Below the pieces are notes generated by a model. That model did no database searches and was not told the origin of the DNA. It saw only the letters and a program-made list of their open reading frames with translations. The translations under genes were made by a program, and so were the position numbers. Below, piece after piece: positions 5,270 through 30,893 of a DNA stretch of 51,841 nt (position 1 is its first letter; each line of letters starts with the position of its first letter). The DNA comes from Candidatus Woesearchaeota archaeon (GTDB lineage Archaea; Nanobdellota; Nanobdellia; Woesearchaeales; GW2011-AR4): assembly GCA_016187495.1 (NCBI GenBank), contig JACPJP010000007.1, positions 1 to 51,841 on the forward strand, read 5' to 3'.

Positions 5270-8200
5270 ATGGAAAAATATGAGCCGTTAAAGCAGGAAC
5301 CAGAAATTTTGAAGTTTTGGAAGGATAACAGAATTTATGAAAAAGCAAAAGACAAGAATAGGGGCAAGAATAAGTTCTATTTTTTAGATGGGCCCCCTTA
5401 TACCTCAGGAAAGGTGCATTTAGGCACTGCATGGAACAAGTCCCTAAAAGACTCTATTCTGCGATATAAAAGGATGCAGGGCTTTGATGTTTTAGATAGA
5501 GCGGGATATGACATGCACGGCCTTCCAACGGAAAATGCTGCAGAAAAGGAGCTTGGAATAAAGAAAAAGGATGACATAAAAAAGTTCGGTGTCGAGAAGT
5601 TTGTAAAGGCGTGCAAAGACTTAAGCATCAAAAACATGAAAATAATGAACCAGGATTTTCAAAGGCTGGGCGTGTGGATGGATTTTGACAACGCATACCA
5701 GTCTGTAAAAAAAGAATTTATAGATGGGGAATGGTGGCTTGTCAAGAAAGTGCATGAAAAAAAAAGGCTGTATGAGGGATTAAGGTCAATGGCATGGGAC
5801 TGGGAGCACCAAACAGCATTGGCAAAGCATGAGCTCGAATACAAGGACATTAAAGACAAATCAATTTTTGTAAAGATGCAGGTTAAAGGCAAAAAAAGTG
5901 AGTTCTTAATAATTTGGACTACTACTCCATGGACAATCGCATTTAATTTGGGGATAATGGTTAATCCTAGCCTAGATTATGTAAAATGTAAGGTTAATAA
6001 TGAATACTGGATTGTGGCAAAGGACATTGCTAATTCATTTATTTCTGGAATTGCAGGAAAAAAATACGAGATTGTGGAAGAATTCAAAGGCAAAAAACTG
6101 GAAGGAATCGAATATGTGCATCCGCTTTATGGTGAATTAGAAGAGCATTATAATAAAATAAAGCAAAAGCACCCGAAAACACATACTGTGGTTATGAGCG
6201 AGGAGTATGTTGACGCAAGTTCTGGTTCCGGTCTTGTCCATATGGCTCCGGGCTGCGGCCCTGAGGATTATGAAGTCGGCCACAGAAACAATATTCCCGC
6301 ATGGAATCTGGTAAAAGAAGATGGCATCTATTCAGATGACATGGGAAAGTTTGCGGGAATGCACACCATAAAAGACAATGTCAAATTTATTGAGCATTTA
6401 AAAGAAAAAAATGCAGTTGTTGCCCAGCAGGTTGTAGAGCATTCCTATCCGCATGGGCAAAGAAGCCATGAGCCGGTTATATTCAGGACAACAAAGCAAT
6501 GGTTCTTTAAAGTTGAGGATATTAAAAAAAGCTTAATCATGGAAAATGACAAGATAAAGTGGGTCCCGAAAGCAGGCTACAATGCATTCAATTCATGGCT
6601 GGAAAACTTAAGGGATAATTCAATATCAAAACAACGGTATTGGGGAACCCCTGCACCAATATGGCGCAATGTTGAAAATCCGGATGATTATATTGTTATA
6701 GGATCAATAGAAGAGCTTGAGCAACTATCTGGAAAAAAAGTGGAAGAGCCGCATATCCCTTGGATTGATGAAATAAAGATTAAAAAAGATGGAAAAGCTT
6801 ACAAGAGGGTTCCTGATGTGCTTGATGTATGGGTAGATGCAGGAACCGTTTCTTGGAACTCTTTAGATTTCCCCCATAATGAAGATGATCTAAAAAAATA
6901 TTTCCCGGCTGATTTTATACTGGAAGGCAAAGACCAAATCAGGGGTTGGTTTAATCTGCTCCATGTAGCTTCCATGCTTTCCATGGGAAAAAGAAGTTTT
7001 GATGCAGTATATATGCATGGCTTCATTAATGATGCAATGGGCAGAAAAATGTCAAAAAGCTTGGGCAACTATATCCTTCCAGAAGAGGTCATAAACAAAT
7101 ATGGCTCGGATACTTTAAGGTATTACATGATTTCCGGAACAAATCCTGGCTTGGACTTAAATTATAATTTTGAGGATATGAATGTAAAGTACAGGAACTT
7201 AACAGTATTATGGAACCTCCATAATTATGTTATAGACCTTGCGAAAAATTCTGGCACTAACCCATCAGAGATTAAGATAAGAAAAGATCGCTTTTCATTG
7301 GAAGAAAGCTACATTTTCTCAAAATTGAACTCAACAATAAGAAAAACTACAAAGACTCTTGATGAGTATAAATTAAATGAAATTCCGCTGCTGGTTGAAA
7401 ACCTTTTCTTAAAGCTAAGCAGGACTTATATCCAATTGACGAGGGACAAATCTGCAGGGGAAGACAAGAAAGTTGTTTTGTACGCAGTTTATAATGTCTT
7501 AATTGAAACACTAAAGATGTTTGCGCCTATAGCTCCATTCATAACTGAAAAGATCTATCAAAACCTAAAAAAAGAGTTTAATTTGGAAAGAGAAAGCATA
7601 CACCATTATGAATGGCCGAAATGCGATGAAAAATTAATTGACAAGGAGCTGGAAAATGAGATGGATGATATAAGCGATGTGCTGCAAGCAATTTTTTCAT
7701 TGAGGGAAAAAATAAACCTAGGCATAAGATGGCCGCTGCAGGAAGCTGTTATTGTTACAAAAGATGAAAATACAATAAAGGCTGTTGAAAAGCTTAAAAG
7801 CCTTATAAAAACACAGGCAAATATCAAAGAGATTGGTGTTCAGCAGTCATTGCCTGGAATAAAGCTGATGGTAAAAGCTGACTATTCAAAGCTTGGACCT
7901 GACTTCGGGAAAAAAACACCGGAAATAATAGCAAAGCTTACTTCTGAAAGCCCTAAAACAATATTAACACATATAGAAAAAGAGGGAAAGTACGAATTGA
8001 TGATAAATAAAGAAAAGATAAATATTGTAAAGGAGCATATAATTGTTACAAGAGAGGTTCCTGCTCCTTATATTGAAGGCGCTTTCAAAAAGGGGCTTGT
8101 TTATTTAAACAAAGACATCGATGAGGAACTGGAAGCGGAAGGCTATGCCCGTGAATTGATGCGCAGAATACAGGAACTGAGGAAAAAAGCAGGATTGGAG

Positions 8201-11580: not shown

Positions 11581-11721
11581 ATGAAAAAACCCATCAGCGC
11601 GACAATTGATGCAGAACTGATAAAGTGGATAGACAAAGAGCTGGAAGACAGGCAAAAGTACAGGAATAAGTCGCATTTGATTGAGATAGCCCTCGATATG
11701 CTAAAAAACCAGAAAAGATAG
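11581..11721 (+). CDS. ribbon-helix-helix (CopG/MetJ-like) small DNA-binding protein, 46 aa; absent from the ORF track
   Basis: MKKPISATIDAELIKWIDKELEDRQKYRNKSHLIEIALDMLKNQKR has a beta strand (ISATID) followed by two helices, with the typical (R/K)S(H/E)(L/V)IexAL motif. The 94-aa antisense ORF at 11571..11855 is probably spurious. Confidence 0.6.
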   Translation: MKKPISATIDAELIKWIDKELEDRQKYRNKSHLIEIALDMLKNQKR

Positions 11722-11906
11722 TAATTAATAGGCGAGTCCGAGCGATGTGGCAAGACAGCGAGGACTCGCACTAAAATTGCGAAGCATAACGATTTGTTCA
11801 ATAATAAAATTCCAATAAAAATTAGCAGTAAACAAAGAAAATAAATAAAAAACACATTAAAAAATAAACAATAAAAAAATAAATCAAAAAAAGAGGGAAA
11901 TAATTA

Positions 11907-26220: not shown

Positions 26221-28635
26221 ATGGAATTGCCAAAGCATTACAACCCGCAAGAATCTGAGGTTAAATGGATGCAGTACTGGGAAAAGGAAAAAATCTACAA
26301 ATTTGACCCTGAAAGCAAGGCAGAAATATACTCTGTAGACACGCCCCCACCAACTGTAAGCGGAAAAATGCATCTTGGCCATACATTCTCTTACTCGCAG
26401 CAGGATTTTGTTGTAAGGTTCCAGAGAATGCTGGGAAAAAATGTTTTCTATCCTTTTGGAACGGATGATAATGGCCTAGCTACAGAAAGAATGATAGAAA
26501 AGATGAAGAATGTAAATGGCCAGTTCATGAAAAGGAAGGAATTTGTCGAGCTATGCCTCAAAACATTAGAGGAGATAAGGCCTGATTTTGTCTATGACTG
26601 GAAAAGAATTGGGATTAGCGCTGACTTTAATATTTTCTATACGACCATTGATGCGCATTCCCAAAAAGTCTCCCAAAAATCATTCATTGATTTATACAAA
26701 ATTGGAAGAATCTACAAAAAACGCGCTCCTTTCGTATGGTGCCCTGAATGCCAGACCGCTATAGCTCAAGTTGAAATGAAAGACTCTGAAAGGGACTCCA
26801 ATTTAGTTTATATGAAATTTGACACTAGCTTGGGCAAGCAGATAACAATAGCAACAACAAGGCCGGAGCTTTTGCCAGCATGCGTAGCAATACATGTGCA
26901 TCCGGATGATAAGCGCTATAAAAAATTCATAGGGGCAAAGGCAAAAATACCTTTCTCAGACAGGGAAGTAAAAATAAACGCAAATAAAGATGTGGATATG
27001 GAATTTGGCTCTGGCGCCGTATATCATTGCACTTATGGCGACATGGATGATGTAAAATGGATAGAAGAATTCAAAATTAAGCCAATAGAAATAATAAATA
27101 AAAATGGGACATTAAATGAAAAAGCCGGAAAATTTTCAGGAATGCACGTAAAAAAGGCTAGGAAAGAAGTCATAGAATCATTGAAGGAAGAGAATAAGAT
27201 AGAAAAAATAGAGCCAATAAAACATGTTGTCAATGTGCATGAAAGGTGCGAGACTGACATTGAAATTCTAAACACAGACCAGTGGTTCATAAGATATCTT
27301 GACCTAAAGGGAGATTTCATAAAATATGGCCGAAGGATAAAATGGCGTCCTGAGCACATGAGGGCAAGATATGAAAACTGGATTGATGGGTTAAAGTGGG
27401 ACTGGAATATCTCAAGGCAAAGGCATTTTGGAGTTCCAATACCTGCATGGCACTGCAAGAAATGCAATGAGATTATAGTAGCAGATGAAATGCAGCTTCC
27501 AGTCGATCCCCTAGCTGACAAGCCAAAAGGCAAATGCAAATGCGGCTCTAACGATTTTGAGCCTGAAAAGGATGTTTTGGACACATGGGCAACTTCTTCA
27601 TTAACCCCAGACATAGCTGTTGGATTATTTAAAGACAAATCCATATTTAAAAAACTGCTGCCAATGTCATTAAGGCCTCAAGCCCATGACATAATAACTT
27701 TCTGGCTCTTTAATACTATAGTTAAAAGCTATTTCCACCATCAGAATATCCCATGGAAAGATGTGATGATTTCGGGATGGGCTTTGGACCCTCATGGAAA
27801 AAAAATGTCAAAATCAAAAGGCAATGTTGTTGACCCAAGAGAAACCCTAAAAAAATATTCTGCAGATGCTATAAGATTCTGGGCAGCTGGCTCTAAGCTT
27901 GGAGACGACCTTCCATTCCAGGAAAAAGATATTGTAACAGGAATAAAATTTACTACAAAAATCTGGAATGCGTCAAAGTTTGCATTCATGCACTTACAGG
28001 ACTACAAGCTGCAGAAGCCAAAAAAGCTCGAAACAATGGATTTATGGCTACTATCAAAATTAAGCAGGCTTATAAAAGACTCAACTGAATTTTTTAATAG
28101 TTATGAATATTCTCATACAAAGCTTGAGGTAGATAAGTTTTTCTGGCAGAATTTTTGCGACAATTACCTTGAGATTGTAAAAGACAGGATTTATAACCCT
28201 AACAAAAGGGGCAAGGAAGCAAGAGTATCAGCGCAATATACACTTTACAACTCATTGTTTGCAATAATAAAATTAATGGCCCCTATAACACCCTTCATAA
28301 CAGAAGAGCTTTACCATTCTTTCTTTAAACAACATGAGAAAATCAAAAGCGTACATCTGACAAAATGGCCAGATTTAGACATAATAAATAACAAAGCTGA
28401 AAATATTGGAGATTTTTTTGTTTATGTTTTGCAGCATGCAAGAAGGGTAAAGGCTGAAAAAAATATGTCCATGAAAGACTCCATAAAAAAAATAATTGTA
28501 AAAGGAAAAATTACAAAGGCAGATTTTGAAAGCATAAAAGACGATTTAATAGCGACTACAAAAGCCGAGGAGATTATTTTTGAGCAGTTAAACAAGGACT
28601 CTATAGCAGATTATGAGGTTGTTGTCGAGGATTAA
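26221..28635 (+). CDS. valS: valyl-tRNA synthetase
   Basis: Motifs present are PPPTVSGKMHLGH (HIGH), TTRPELLPACVAIHVHPDDKRY (editing domain), DVLDTWATSS and KMSKSKGN. The protein is 804 aa. Confidence 0.9.
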   Translation: MELPKHYNPQESEVKWMQYWEKEKIYKFDPESKAEIYSVDTPPPTVSGKMHLGHTFSYSQQDFVVRFQRMLGKNVFYPFGTDDNGLATERMIEKMKNVNGQFMKRKEFVELCLKTLEEIRPDFVYDWKRIGISADFNIFYTTIDAHSQKVSQKSFIDLYKIGRIYKKRAPFVWCPECQTAIAQVEMKDSERDSNLVYMKFDTSLGKQITIATTRPELLPACVAIHVHPDDKRYKKFIGAKAKIPFSDREVKINANKDVDMEFGSGAVYHCTYGDMDDVKWIEEFKIKPIEIINKNGTLNEKAGKFSGMHVKKARKEVIESLKEENKIEKIEPIKHVVNVHERCETDIEILNTDQWFIRYLDLKGDFIKYGRRIKWRPEHMRARYENWIDGLKWDWNISRQRHFGVPIPAWHCKKCNEIIVADEMQLPVDPLADKPKGKCKCGSNDFEPEKDVLDTWATSSLTPDIAVGLFKDKSIFKKLLPMSLRPQAHDIITFWLFNTIVKSYFHHQNIPWKDVMISGWALDPHGKKMSKSKGNVVDPRETLKKYSADAIRFWAAGSKLGDDLPFQEKDIVTGIKFTTKIWNASKFAFMHLQDYKLQKPKKLETMDLWLLSKLSRLIKDSTEFFNSYEYSHTKLEVDKFFWQNFCDNYLEIVKDRIYNPNKRGKEARVSAQYTLYNSLFAIIKLMAPITPFITEELYHSFFKQHEKIKSVHLTKWPDLDIINNKAENIGDFFVYVLQHARRVKAEKNMSMKDSIKKIIVKGKITKADFESIKDDLIATTKAEEIIFEQLNKDSIADYEVVVED

Positions 28636-29990
28636 TTCTTCTTTATCACAGTAACCTCATCAGAATCCTCCAATAAGTAGCCTTTACTTTTAATTTCTTC
28701 CCTTATTTGATCAGCTTTTTTAAAGTCTTTTTTCGCTCTTGCCTCGTCTCTCTCTTCAACCAATTTTCTTATTTCTGGAAGGACCTTTTGCTCTTCTATA
28801 TCTAAAACATTAAAAATCTTGTCAAATTCCAGCATTAGCCCATAGCTTTTCTTGCCTCCGCCTTTTTTATGGACATCCTTTACAAAATCAAAGATTACGG
28901 CTAAAGCGCCTGGAGTGTCAAAATCATCGTCCATGTGTTCCTGAAATTCTTTTTTTGTTTTATCGATTAAAGATATGTCATCTTTTTCTTTACTGTTTTT
29001 TACCTTTCTTACAAAATCATTTAACCTCTCCAAGCTGTTTTTAGCCTGCTCCAATAATTCCTCAGAAAAGTCTATGGGGCTTCTGTAATGCCCGGAAAGA
29101 TAGAAAAACCTCAAAACCTTGCTATAATACTCTTTCAATGCGTCTCTTATTGTAATGAAATTTCCTAAAGACTTTGCCATCTTCTGCCCCTTAACATTCA
29201 AAAAGCCAGTATGCAGCCAATACCTTACAAATGGCTTTTTTCCGGAAGCTGATTCCATCTGTGCAATCTCAGCTTCATGATGCGGGAATATTAAGTCACG
29301 AGCGCCACCATGCACATCATACTGCGAGCCAAAGAATTTCTCGCTAATTGCCGTATCTTCAATATGCCATCCTGGACGCCCTCTATCAAACCATGGATCT
29401 GGCCAAGAAGGCTCATCTTTCTTAGATTTCTTCCATAGGCAAAAATCCCCTTTATTTCTTTTTTTGACGCTTTCATCTATTCTAGAAACGGCATCTTCTG
29501 CATCTAAAGACTTTCTGCCAGAAAGCTTGCCATATTCTGGAAATTTGCTCAAGTCGAAATAAATGCCATCATCTTCAATAATATAAGCAAACCCTTTGTC
29601 CATGAGAGTTTTTACTTGGTTTATCATCTCCCTTATGTAATCTGTTGCTCTTGCAAATTTATTTATAGAATTAACGCCAAGAGAGCCTATGTCTTTATAG
29701 TATTCTTCCTCAAATTCTCGGGCTAATTCCATTGGGTCATTTTCCCTCTCAGCAGCCCTCTGGATTATCTTATCGTCTATATCAGTAATATTTTGGAGGT
29801 AGAAAACATTATAACCGCAGTATTTTAGGTATTTTACAATAATATCAAATTGAACATAGGTTTTTGCATGGCCTATATGCGCATAATCATATACTGTAGG
29901 GCCGCACACAAAGAGATTTACCTTTTTATCCGCTGATGGCTCAAAAACTTCTTTTTTTCTTGTTAGAGTATTATAAATTCTTAATGTCAT
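28632..29990 (-). CDS. cysS: cysteinyl-tRNA synthetase
   Basis: Motifs present are [17 protein letters not shown] (HIGH), WHIEDTAI and KMAKSLGNF. The protein is 452 aa. Confidence 0.95.
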
Positions 29991-30612
29991 TTTTATGATT
30001 TTCCTCCATCAGCAAGACTTTTCTCTTAAGCTCGAACCATTCTTCTTTTGGAACTTCAACCTTTTCTATGTCTTTTCTTGTCACCTTTTTGCCTTCTTTT
30101 ATTATATATTTCCCAAGCTCTGCGACAACTGTTGAGTTTGGAGGAACATCATCTATAACAATTGCGCCTGCGCCAATTTTGCTGTTGTCACCAATTTTTA
30201 TAGGGCCAAGAATTTTTGAGCCTACTCCAAGGGTAACATTATTTCCAATGGTAGGGTGCCTTTTCTGGCCTTTTTTATCAGCCCACCACCCATGTCCACC
30301 TAAGGTTACTCCTTGATACATCATAACATCATCGCCAATTTCCGATGTTTCCCCAATTATTATTCCTGAGCCATGGTCTATGAAGAATCTTTTTCCAATT
30401 TTAGCGCCAGGATGAATCTCTATGCCTGTCAAAAACCTGCTAATTTGAGAAATTAATCTTGGAATAAATGGAATACGGAAGTTATAGAAGAAATGAGCTA
30501 TTCTGTGCAGCCATATAGCATGTACTCCCTGGTATAAGAACACTTCTAAGAAGGTTATTCCTTTCCTTAATGCAGGATCTTTTTTATATGCTGTTTTTAT
30601 GGTCTGGAACAT
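29971..30612 (-). CDS. cysE: serine O-acetyltransferase
   Basis: It has left-handed beta-helix hexapeptide repeats ([41 protein letters not shown]) preceded by the SAT N-terminal helical region. It overlaps cysS by 20 nt. Confidence 0.85.
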
Positions 30613-30637
30613 TTTAATTAATAGGCTATAAAATAAA

Positions 30638-30763
30638 AGCGAGGGAAGGGACTCGAACCCTTGAATAACCGCTCTGCAGGCGGTCGCCTATCGGCTTATT
30701 GATACTCAAGCATCAATAATTAGCCGCTTGGCTCTAAGGTATTATTTTTCAATAAACCCTCGC
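30638..30763 (-). tRNA. tRNA-Cys (anticodon GCA) with two putative introns in the D-arm region
   Basis: On the minus strand, the 3' part is uninterrupted: G ACCGC CUGCAGA GCGGU UAUUC AAGGG UUCGAGU CCCUU CCCUCGC U, with the discriminator U73 typical of tRNA-Cys. The 5' part must be assembled from GCGAGGGUU (30763-30755) and GCCAAGCGGCUA (30732-30721). An extra copy of GCGAGGG lies at 30784-30778. Confidence 0.65.
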
Positions 30764-30791
30764 ATAGCGGACTATGCCCCTCGCTAATGCG

Positions 30792-30799
30792 TTATAAAA
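30792..30799 (-). promoter_or_regulatory. candidate TATA box (TTTTATAA on the minus strand) for the tRNA-Cys gene
   Basis: It is centred about 30 nt upstream of the GCGAGGG at 30763. This spacing fits the archaeal TATA-to-start distance with a short leader. Confidence 0.3.
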
Positions 30800-30893
30800 C
30801 CAAACTTCTTTTATAAATATTTCTGAATAAACTTTCGACACACAAAAATCTTTGGCAGAAACATTTAAAAACAGCCTAAGTTTCTCTTTTTTT

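Follow-up and report, generated by a model that had tools for sequence, protein, structure and literature searches.

How can an archaeal intron be removed from a tRNA precursor when its splice motif is built from the strand that should close the acceptor stem? This question is raised by a tRNA-Cys(GCA) locus of a Woesearchaeota-like (DPANN) archaeon, located on the minus strand of contig JACPJP010000007.1 at 30784-30638, with all exons colinear within 147 nucleotides (nt). We refer to the whole 51,841-nt stretch that was analyzed as the window; it is archaeal and AT-rich, at 36% GC. We find that the locus is a genuine tRNA-Cys(GCA) gene broken by two short introns. Upstream of it stands a second copy of the 5' acceptor strand which, judging from related loci, is a conserved and selected leader element. 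The best reading of this copy, to which we give roughly an even chance, is a leader-encoded stand-in for the acceptor strand that also tethers an 8-nt exon. Conservation, covariation, and folding models together point to such a role.

A tRNA-Cys gene interrupted by two short introns

The gene escapes standard detection. ARAGORN reports no tRNA in the unspliced 51.8-kb window, and Rfam at its gathering scores gives no match there. When the threshold is relaxed, the Rfam tRNA model (RF00005) aligns to 30646-30696 over model positions 9-63 with 28.6 bits, against a gathering score of 29. The original prediction, made from the sequence alone, proposed a tRNA-Cys(GCA) in three exons with two short insertions, and every string that it quoted is present on the minus strand where it had been placed. 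Specifically, the anticodon arm ACCGC-CUGCAGA-GCGGU (30684-30668) is followed by the variable loop UAUUC, the T arm AAGGG-UUCGAGU-CCCUU (30662-30646), the 3' acceptor strand CCCUCGC (30645-30639), and the discriminator U73 (30638), while GGC-UAA-UUAUUGAU ... AUCAAUAA-GCC is found around the second insertion. The anticodon GCA, carried in the loop CUGCAGA, and the discriminator U73 identify the Cys isotype.

To place the splice sites, we scanned for the bulge-helix-bulge (BHB) motif, defined as two 3-nt bulges on opposite strands separated by a 4-bp helix and cut after the second base of each bulge, a cleavage rule reportedly given by Marck and Grosjean in 2003. Both insertions show this core of two 3-nt bulges and a 4-bp helix (the motif is described in PMC4090602), and both introns thus carry motifs for the archaeal splicing endonuclease, which would cleave them. 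The first motif (BHB-1), recovered by the strict scan, has the central helix GAGG (30761-30758)/CCUU (30739-30736) and the bulges GU|U (30757-30755) and AG|A (30735-30733). Its inner helix has 5 bp (30754-30750/30744-30740) and its outer helix, in which G1C2 pairs with G10C11, has 2 bp (h=2, h'=5); the outer helix competes with a hairpin in the leader and with the D stem. BHB-1 defines exon 1 (GCGAGGGU, 30756-30763, tRNA positions 1-8), with the 5' cut after 30756, and a 22-nt intron 1 (30734-30755, 18% GC) between positions 8 and 9. This map corrects the original one in three respects. The first insertion had been placed at 30754-30733, one base off, since BHB-1 cuts after U30756 and before A30733 and gives 30755-30734; it lies at the acceptor/D-arm junction (8/9) and not inside the D arm; and the mature tRNA reads U8 A9 in place of the proposed U8 U9, as do intron-free relatives, which have GCGAGGG-UA-GCCAAG.

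The second insertion (30720-30690) is cut by its motif (BHB-2) exactly as first proposed, which yields a 31-nt intron 2 between positions 21 and 22. BHB-2 comprises the central helix CGGC (30726-30723)/GCCG (30695-30692), the bulges UA|A (30722-30720) and AU|A (30691-30689), and a 10-bp inner helix (30719-30710/30705-30696), and its helices appear in the minimum-energy fold. Between the outer helix, which is the D stem, and the central helix lie 3 unpaired bases, and this makes the motif slightly relaxed. Exon 2 (AGCCAAGCGGCUA, 30721-30733, positions 9-21), once rejoined to exon 3 (30638-30689, positions 22-73, i.e., anticodon arm through U73), restores the D arm; the junction reads GCCAAGCGGCUAAGGCG, and the 17-mer occurs uninterrupted in more than 100 tRNA-Cys loci.

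The three-exon structure is borne out by these motifs and by ARAGORN, which recognizes the assembled exons as a 73-nt tRNA-Cys(GCA). The spliced 73-mer is identical at 68 of 73 positions to an intron-free gene (L091), itself scoring 60.5 bits in Rfam. Base composition follows the same partition, with 62-75% GC in the exons and 62% in the leader against 18% in intron 1, 32% in intron 2, and 36% in the window. A split or permuted tRNA gene was considered and rejected, given that the exons are colinear, on one strand, and within 147 nt.

Beyond this locus, no other tRNA was reported in the window by ARAGORN, and Rfam at E <= 1 showed only 30646-30696. A tRNA-Phe noted by the earlier reader was not found by a simple anticodon-stem scan of the window. 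A GC-rich segment at 11720-11800 on the plus strand, with the stem-loop TCGCA-CUAAAAU-UGCGA, may be that candidate. A tRNA-Cys that escapes both ARAGORN and the Rfam threshold is the type of gap that makes DPANN genomes seem tRNA-poor, and the corrected exon map adds one more case of a disrupted tRNA with clear rules for gene finding.

The 8/9 intron in related loci

Because BHB-1 is built from tRNA positions 1-8 (its outer and central helices from positions 1-6), its formation excludes the acceptor stem. A splice motif that consumes these positions poses a folding and tethering problem that is absent from canonical introns. Relatives came from two scans, one of genomes with CysE and one of metagenomes with a D-arm-to-anticodon pattern. 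Fifteen distinct archaeal loci have an insertion after U8 (WIN, L002, L003, L004, L043, L053, L060, L068, L071, L076, L096, L108, L109, L110, and L137), and 30 archaeal-type tRNA-Cys loci without it served as the comparison set. The 8/9 splice motif is kept in the 15 loci. Its central helix is paired at 4/4 positions in 13 of them, with bulges N7 U8|N and NN|A9, and covaries among GAGG/CCUU, GAGG/CCUC, and GGAG/CUCC. When two of these genes (L003 and L043) are spliced by the 8/9 rule, ARAGORN recognizes tRNA-Cys; the unspliced forms go undetected.

Intron 2 was seen in the window alone, in a comparison for which the search pattern demanded an uninterrupted D arm. Apparent insertions elsewhere include a pair in the anticodon stem, flanking the anticodon loop (L002, L053, L060, L068, L071, L096, L108, and L137), and one in the T loop (L002, L004, L053, L060, L068, L076, L096, and L108-L110), such that some homologous tRNA-Cys genes appear to have four introns in all. 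A search for the same layout in other tRNAs of the window and related loci (~0.9 Mb; AT-rich subset 0.39 Mb) returned only chance repeats and tRNA-Cys. In other DPANN contigs among these loci, a tRNA-Arg beside tRNA-Cys (L141, ~5880-5990, and L143, ~1480-1590, both on the plus strand) has long D-loop insertions; ARAGORN misses both genes, and an upstream strand copy is absent from them.

A conserved copy of the acceptor strand upstream of the intron-bearing genes

The upstream GCGAGGG (30778-30784) matches the true strand (30763-30757) exactly and is the proposed stand-in acceptor strand. From base composition, ~7e-4 exact 7-mer repeats would be expected within 60 nt. A copy of acceptor positions 1-6(7) occurs 5-45 nt upstream of the true strand in all 15 loci with the 8/9 intron, and in a single one (L134) of the 30 intron-free loci. 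The association has a Fisher p of 4.6e-11, which is uncorrected for shared ancestry and, the loci being related, is an upper bound on significance.

Several features of the copy point to selection. Across 14 distinct sequences, pairwise identity is 0.95 at copy positions 1-6, compared to 0.42 in the 10 nt before and 0.41 in the 5 nt after. The spacers between the two copies vary in length (5-45 nt) and sequence and contain no open reading frame (ORF), and the copy is kept whatever gene lies upstream. In L043, where the acceptor strand is GCGGAGG, positions 4-5 differ, and matching changes are found in the upstream copy (GCGGAGA), the pairing segment of the intron (CUCC), and the 3' strand (CCUCCGC). 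Conversely, in L050, where the intron is missing, the copy has decayed to ACGAGG at the place where L053-like relatives have the upstream copy. The base 3' of the upstream copy may be G, C, A, or U among the 15 loci, whereas after the true strand it is U8 in 14 of them, L109 being the exception.

Promoter and 5' leader

A B recognition element (BRE)/TATA promoter, cAGAAATATTTATAAAAG, lies at 30808-30825, with the TATA box at 30817-30810. It is conserved across loci and nearly identical in L004, L076, and the intron-free L084. In the window, it is placed 25-26 nt ahead of the upstream copy. The distance from the 3' end of the TATA box to the upstream copy is 22-25 nt (WIN, L076, L004, L043, and L134), and it matches the TATA-to-G1 spacing of about 25 intron-free loci. 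A TATA-like box at 30792-30799 had earlier been taken as the promoter, with initiation inside the leader hairpin; the corresponding TTTTATAA at 30799-30792 is present, yet it is not conserved in L004, and the conserved promoter is the one at 30825-30808. The conserved TATA spacing therefore implies that the upstream copy and the hairpin are transcribed, and the promoter sequence places the probable start just 5' of the copy. In six other loci (L071, L110, L068, L108, L053, and L109), a small ORF of the same unit precedes the copy. As the copy is internal to the transcripts in L071-type loci, these organisms must have a way of removing long 5' leaders.

Between the two copies, the leader hairpin GCAUAG-UCCG-CUAUGC (30762-30777) ends, on its 3' strand, in G1 C2 of the true tRNA, and it appears in the minimum-energy fold. 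L076 has an identical spacer, and the hairpin reads GCAAAG-UUCG-CUUUGC in L068, L108, and L137, a compensatory change from U:A to A:U. The CCGCU segment of the hairpin (30770-30766) is also complementary to the D-loop AGCGG, and the 3' part of the spacer pairs with the D-loop in the minimum-energy fold of L076, L002, L003, L004, and L043.

Two further ways of disposing of the leader were tried and rejected. Removal of the spacer and one copy as a third intron finds no site in the 21-nt register in the strict BHB scan; the candidates 30781/30762 and 30780/30763 would yield wrong products, and the repeat itself excludes such an intron, since its central helix would have to be self-complementary, as also holds for L134, L109, L053, and L060. 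Endonuclease removal through a leader-trailer or leader-D-loop BHB was examined by hand, and its geometry would cut the D-loop or leave a 3' extension. No BHB that would excise the leader was found in the window scan or in L134, L109, L053, and L060.

Folding models of the precursor

We then folded the precursors of the 15 loci, for which coordinates were curated; all figures are nearest-neighbor predictions. The 155-nt precursor of the window folds with z = -6.7 relative to shuffled sequences, and none of 200 shuffles folded as well. In its minimum-energy fold, the upstream copy forms the acceptor helix, with the hairpin stacked beside it, GAGG/CCUU is paired, and the D-loop-intron helices are formed. 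Ensemble calculations give the same picture in 15/15 loci, where the 3' strand is paired to the upstream copy at P 0.78-1.00 and to the true strand at P <= 0.01. Forcing the true strand of the window into the acceptor stem costs 11.6 kcal/mol relative to the minimum-energy fold.

The modeled splice motif depends on the leader. In the native precursors, positions 3-6 are paired to the intron with a median P of 0.61; this drops to 0.00 on deletion of the leader and to 0.02 on substitution of the copy by A7. With the leader deleted, the true strand takes the 3' strand at P of about 0.99; with the A7 replacement, this shift is partial in several loci (0.08-1.00; 0.36 in the window).

A leader strand that may stand in for the acceptor strand

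The reading that we prefer would work as follows. Transcription from the TATA box at 30817-30810 would start a few nt before 30784, and the RNA would open with a 21-nt structured leader, consisting of the acceptor-strand copy (30784-30778) and then the hairpin. BHB-1 would borrow positions 1-2 for its outer helix, 3-6 for its central helix, and 7-8 for its 5' bulge, thereby barring the true strand from the acceptor stem, and its cleavage would leave an 8-nt 5' exon that is hardly held. The upstream copy would pair with the 3' strand CCCUCGC in place of the true strand, closing the tRNA body (T arm and acceptor domain). By occupying the 3' strand, it would prevent the true strand from being pulled out of the splice motif, and, once the RNA is cleaved, it would keep the 8-nt exon attached to the body until ligation. 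The spacer would form the hairpin or, alternatively, pair with the D-loop and so lengthen the motif's helix on the exon side. Ligation would join the true strand to A9 and the D arm; this strand would then displace the stand-in, and the leader would be cut off at 30764|30763, 5' of G30763, presumably by RNase P. We infer in which order these events occur, that the strands exchange, and which enzyme takes the leader off. In this arrangement, the leader may also gate tRNA-Cys maturation within the cysteine gene cluster.

A number of observations weigh against this reading. Its weakest point is the strand exchange. After in silico removal of intron 1, the upstream copy still holds the 3' strand at P >= 0.76 in 14/15 loci, and near-completely in about 10, so that a thermodynamic switch to the true acceptor stem is not seen in most of the 15. 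Because the copy keeps the 3' strand after removal, the required exchange is unexplained by secondary-structure energetics. The transcript start, both splicing reactions, and the mature 5' end are each predicted. Two loci also depart from the pattern. One of them, L134 (1695-1830, plus strand), has no 8/9 intron and keeps a perfect copy, GCGGAGG, which is either the result of a recent intron loss or a hint of a second role for the leader; its structured 49-nt spacer resembles that of L043. In the other, L109 (minus strand), the upstream GCGAGGG is intact and the downstream copy is a degenerate GCGAGCU with no following U. On its 1-kb contig, this locus may represent a pseudogene or a sequencing error, or its lineage may use the upstream copy as exon; its copies lie ~56-40 nt upstream of the D arm. 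In addition, the covariation comes from a single lineage, the 15 loci are probably of one origin, in which case the association does not represent 15 independent events, and a second tRNA species with an 8/9 intron was not found among the window and related loci. Finally, to our knowledge, other archaeal introns that compete with mature stems need no such helper.

A different role for the leader, which we regard as unlikely, is that of a regulatory or quality-control pro-sequence. It would hold the 3' strand and the D-loop and delay end-processing, CCA addition, or charging, and by extension it might couple tRNA-Cys maturation to cysE/cysS expression. The perfect copy and structured spacer retained by L134 without an 8/9 intron fit this role, yet the copy is absent from 29 of the 30 intron-free tRNA-Cys genes, many of which share the same cysE/cysS context (e.g., L030). 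Similarly, in several relatives tRNA-Cys adjoins a small ORF rich in cysteine codons, as in the cysteine-responsive attenuators of mycobacteria (see below), but in the window no small ORF lies beside the tRNA, and a sensing element was not identified. The prediction that the 3' strand stays paired to the upstream copy once the intron is removed, and the fact that the gene is always in a cysteine gene cluster, are also consistent with a pro-sequence.

We consider it improbable that exon 1 is in reality the upstream copy, or that this copy is an alternative 5' splice donor, with the spacer, downstream copy, and intron 1 leaving as one 43-nt intron. The BHB scan does return a motif for this arrangement, GAGG (30782-30779)/CCUU with the bulge GG|C and the same 3' cut, but the inner helix exists only for the downstream copy (h'=5 versus 0), and the product in the window would carry G8 and not the near-universal U8. 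A U follows both copies in L053 and L060, and L109 has only its upstream copy intact; across the set, however, the base after the upstream copy varies, and U follows the downstream copy in 14/15. The location of the copy at the distance of G1 from the TATA box in near-leaderless relatives would suit an exon, although in L071-type loci the copy is internal to the transcript anyway.

Least probable, and in our view very much so, is a functionless duplication relic, as the original prediction took the upstream GCGAGGG to be, or a DNA-level feature such as an integration-site repeat or promoter element: L053 and L060 do resemble a simple tandem duplication of GCGAGGGUUU, and integrating elements can leave partial tRNA repeats (PMC3293823), but the copy matches exactly in 15/15 loci despite flanks at 0.42 identity and spacers of 5-45 nt, covaries with the acceptor in L043, is missing from 29/30 intron-free loci and decayed in L050, where the intron is absent, has neither an integrase nor a long repeat nearby, and cannot be part of the divergent L10e promoter, since it persists whatever gene is upstream. 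An integration-site (att) repeat was specifically rejected on the basis of the 7-8 nt repeat length, the ORF-free 5-45-nt spacers, and conservation across diverged genomes.

Returning to the stand-in acceptor strand, its general form is that a leader copy, acting as stand-in and tether, lets a BHB intron borrow the acceptor stem. We hold it slightly short of an even chance that this represents a new class of cis-acting folding helper for pre-tRNA. If true, it would illustrate how archaeal introns can colonize positions that are otherwise closed to them, and it bears on the spread of introns to new archaeal tRNA positions; the data suggest that the evolutionary solution was a disposable duplicate of the acceptor strand. 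If confirmed, it would also provide a design principle, in which the body of a precursor RNA stays folded while one of its strands is lent to a processing motif.

Gene neighborhood and cysteine small ORFs

CysE relatives with 75-87% identity belong to metagenome-assembled genomes of Woesearchaeota and Nanoarchaeia. The DNA runs for this archaeon are SRR12113426 and SRR12113428. The entire locus is base-for-base identical in an independent assembly from another sequencing run (L151), and it is therefore not an assembly artifact. An exact-protein look-up of Alba gave no additional contigs. Immediately 3' of the discriminator, the T-rich tract UUUAUUUUAUAG (30626-30637) resembles, by its sequence, an archaeal terminator, and similar T runs follow tRNA-Cys in homologues. 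The ORF of cysE (serine acetyltransferase; Pfam Hexapep) begins 26 nt downstream of the tRNA on the same strand (30612-29971, start codon at 30612) and is followed by that of cysS (cysteinyl-tRNA synthetase; Pfam tRNA-synt_1e/DALR_2; 29990-28632, minus strand). A divergent L10e gene lies on the other side of the tRNA. The same-strand tRNA-Cys/cysE/cysS cluster of the window (28632-30784, minus strand) is kept in L002, L003, L004, L030, L053, L060, L068, L076, L096, and L108-L110, and in some related loci cysS directly follows tRNA-Cys.

In related loci, we also observed conserved small ORFs with runs of cysteine codons at their 3' ends (MLKEIKKKNCCSCC, MHNKIIQGNCCACSCC, MIRQDYYRCYCCC, and MRSLPYRSCICFCCSCCC, each followed by a stop). 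They are located directly upstream of cysE or of the tRNA-Cys-cysE/cysS unit, at L003:2721-2765(+), L004:3872-3922(+), and L007:1621(+), and upstream of tRNA-Cys in L053, L071, L108, L109, L110, and L137. No polycysteine small ORF adjoins tRNA-Cys in the window. For the polycysteine ORF of L071, a TATA box located ~22 nt ahead of the ATG suggests a leaderless mRNA. Mycobacteria have polycysteine leaderless attenuator ORFs that respond to cysteine (bioRxiv 10.1101/834739), which the archaeal ORFs resemble; our literature search found no report of attenuator-type polycysteine ORFs in archaea.

Comparison with known systems

Multi-intron archaeal tRNAs with non-canonical BHB motifs are known from Thermoproteales, Nanoarchaeota, ARMAN, and other DPANN lineages, and DPANN archaea, including Woesearchaeota, are reported to have many disrupted and undetected tRNAs together with splicing endonucleases of broadened specificity (PMC4090602, PMC4033280, PMC5829648). 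With its two non-canonical BHB introns, this tRNA-Cys belongs to that group. As in the known cases, the insertions are short, AT-rich, BHB-flanked, and outside the anticodon position, their removal restores the cloverleaf, and standard finders miss the gene. The reviews consulted place such introns at positions like 3/4, 20/21, 22/23, and 25/26 and make no mention of a conserved strand copy in the leader, whereas the 8/9 intron described here is always accompanied by the copy. A full-text literature search, which does not cover all journals, returned no description of a duplicated or surrogate acceptor strand in a leader.

Integrated elements (SSV1- and pNOB8-type; PMC3293823) leave partial copies of tRNA ends, which are similar in that part of a terminus is repeated beside an intact gene. 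However, those repeats are tens of nt long, flank an integrase-bearing element, and are unselected, whereas the copy described here has 7 nt, lies 5-45 nt away, and is conserved and covarying.

The nearest analogies to the proposed role are the complementary leaders of split tRNAs and the flanking helices of permuted tRNAs and rRNA precursors. As would be the case here, the trans-spliced split tRNAs of Nanoarchaeum equitans and Caldivirga rely on additional complementary RNA beyond the mature sequence to keep the pieces together and to form the BHB. There, the helpers are a leader and a trailer on separate transcripts that pair with each other, whereas in tRNA-Cys there is one colinear transcript, and the putative helper mimics an exon strand and would pair with the 3' end of the tRNA itself. 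Permuted tRNAs and rRNA processing stems likewise need flanking sequence, later discarded, to present the endonuclease motif, although our locus is not permuted and has no BHB at its termini. Neither system copies an exon strand, as the leader of this tRNA-Cys appears to do.

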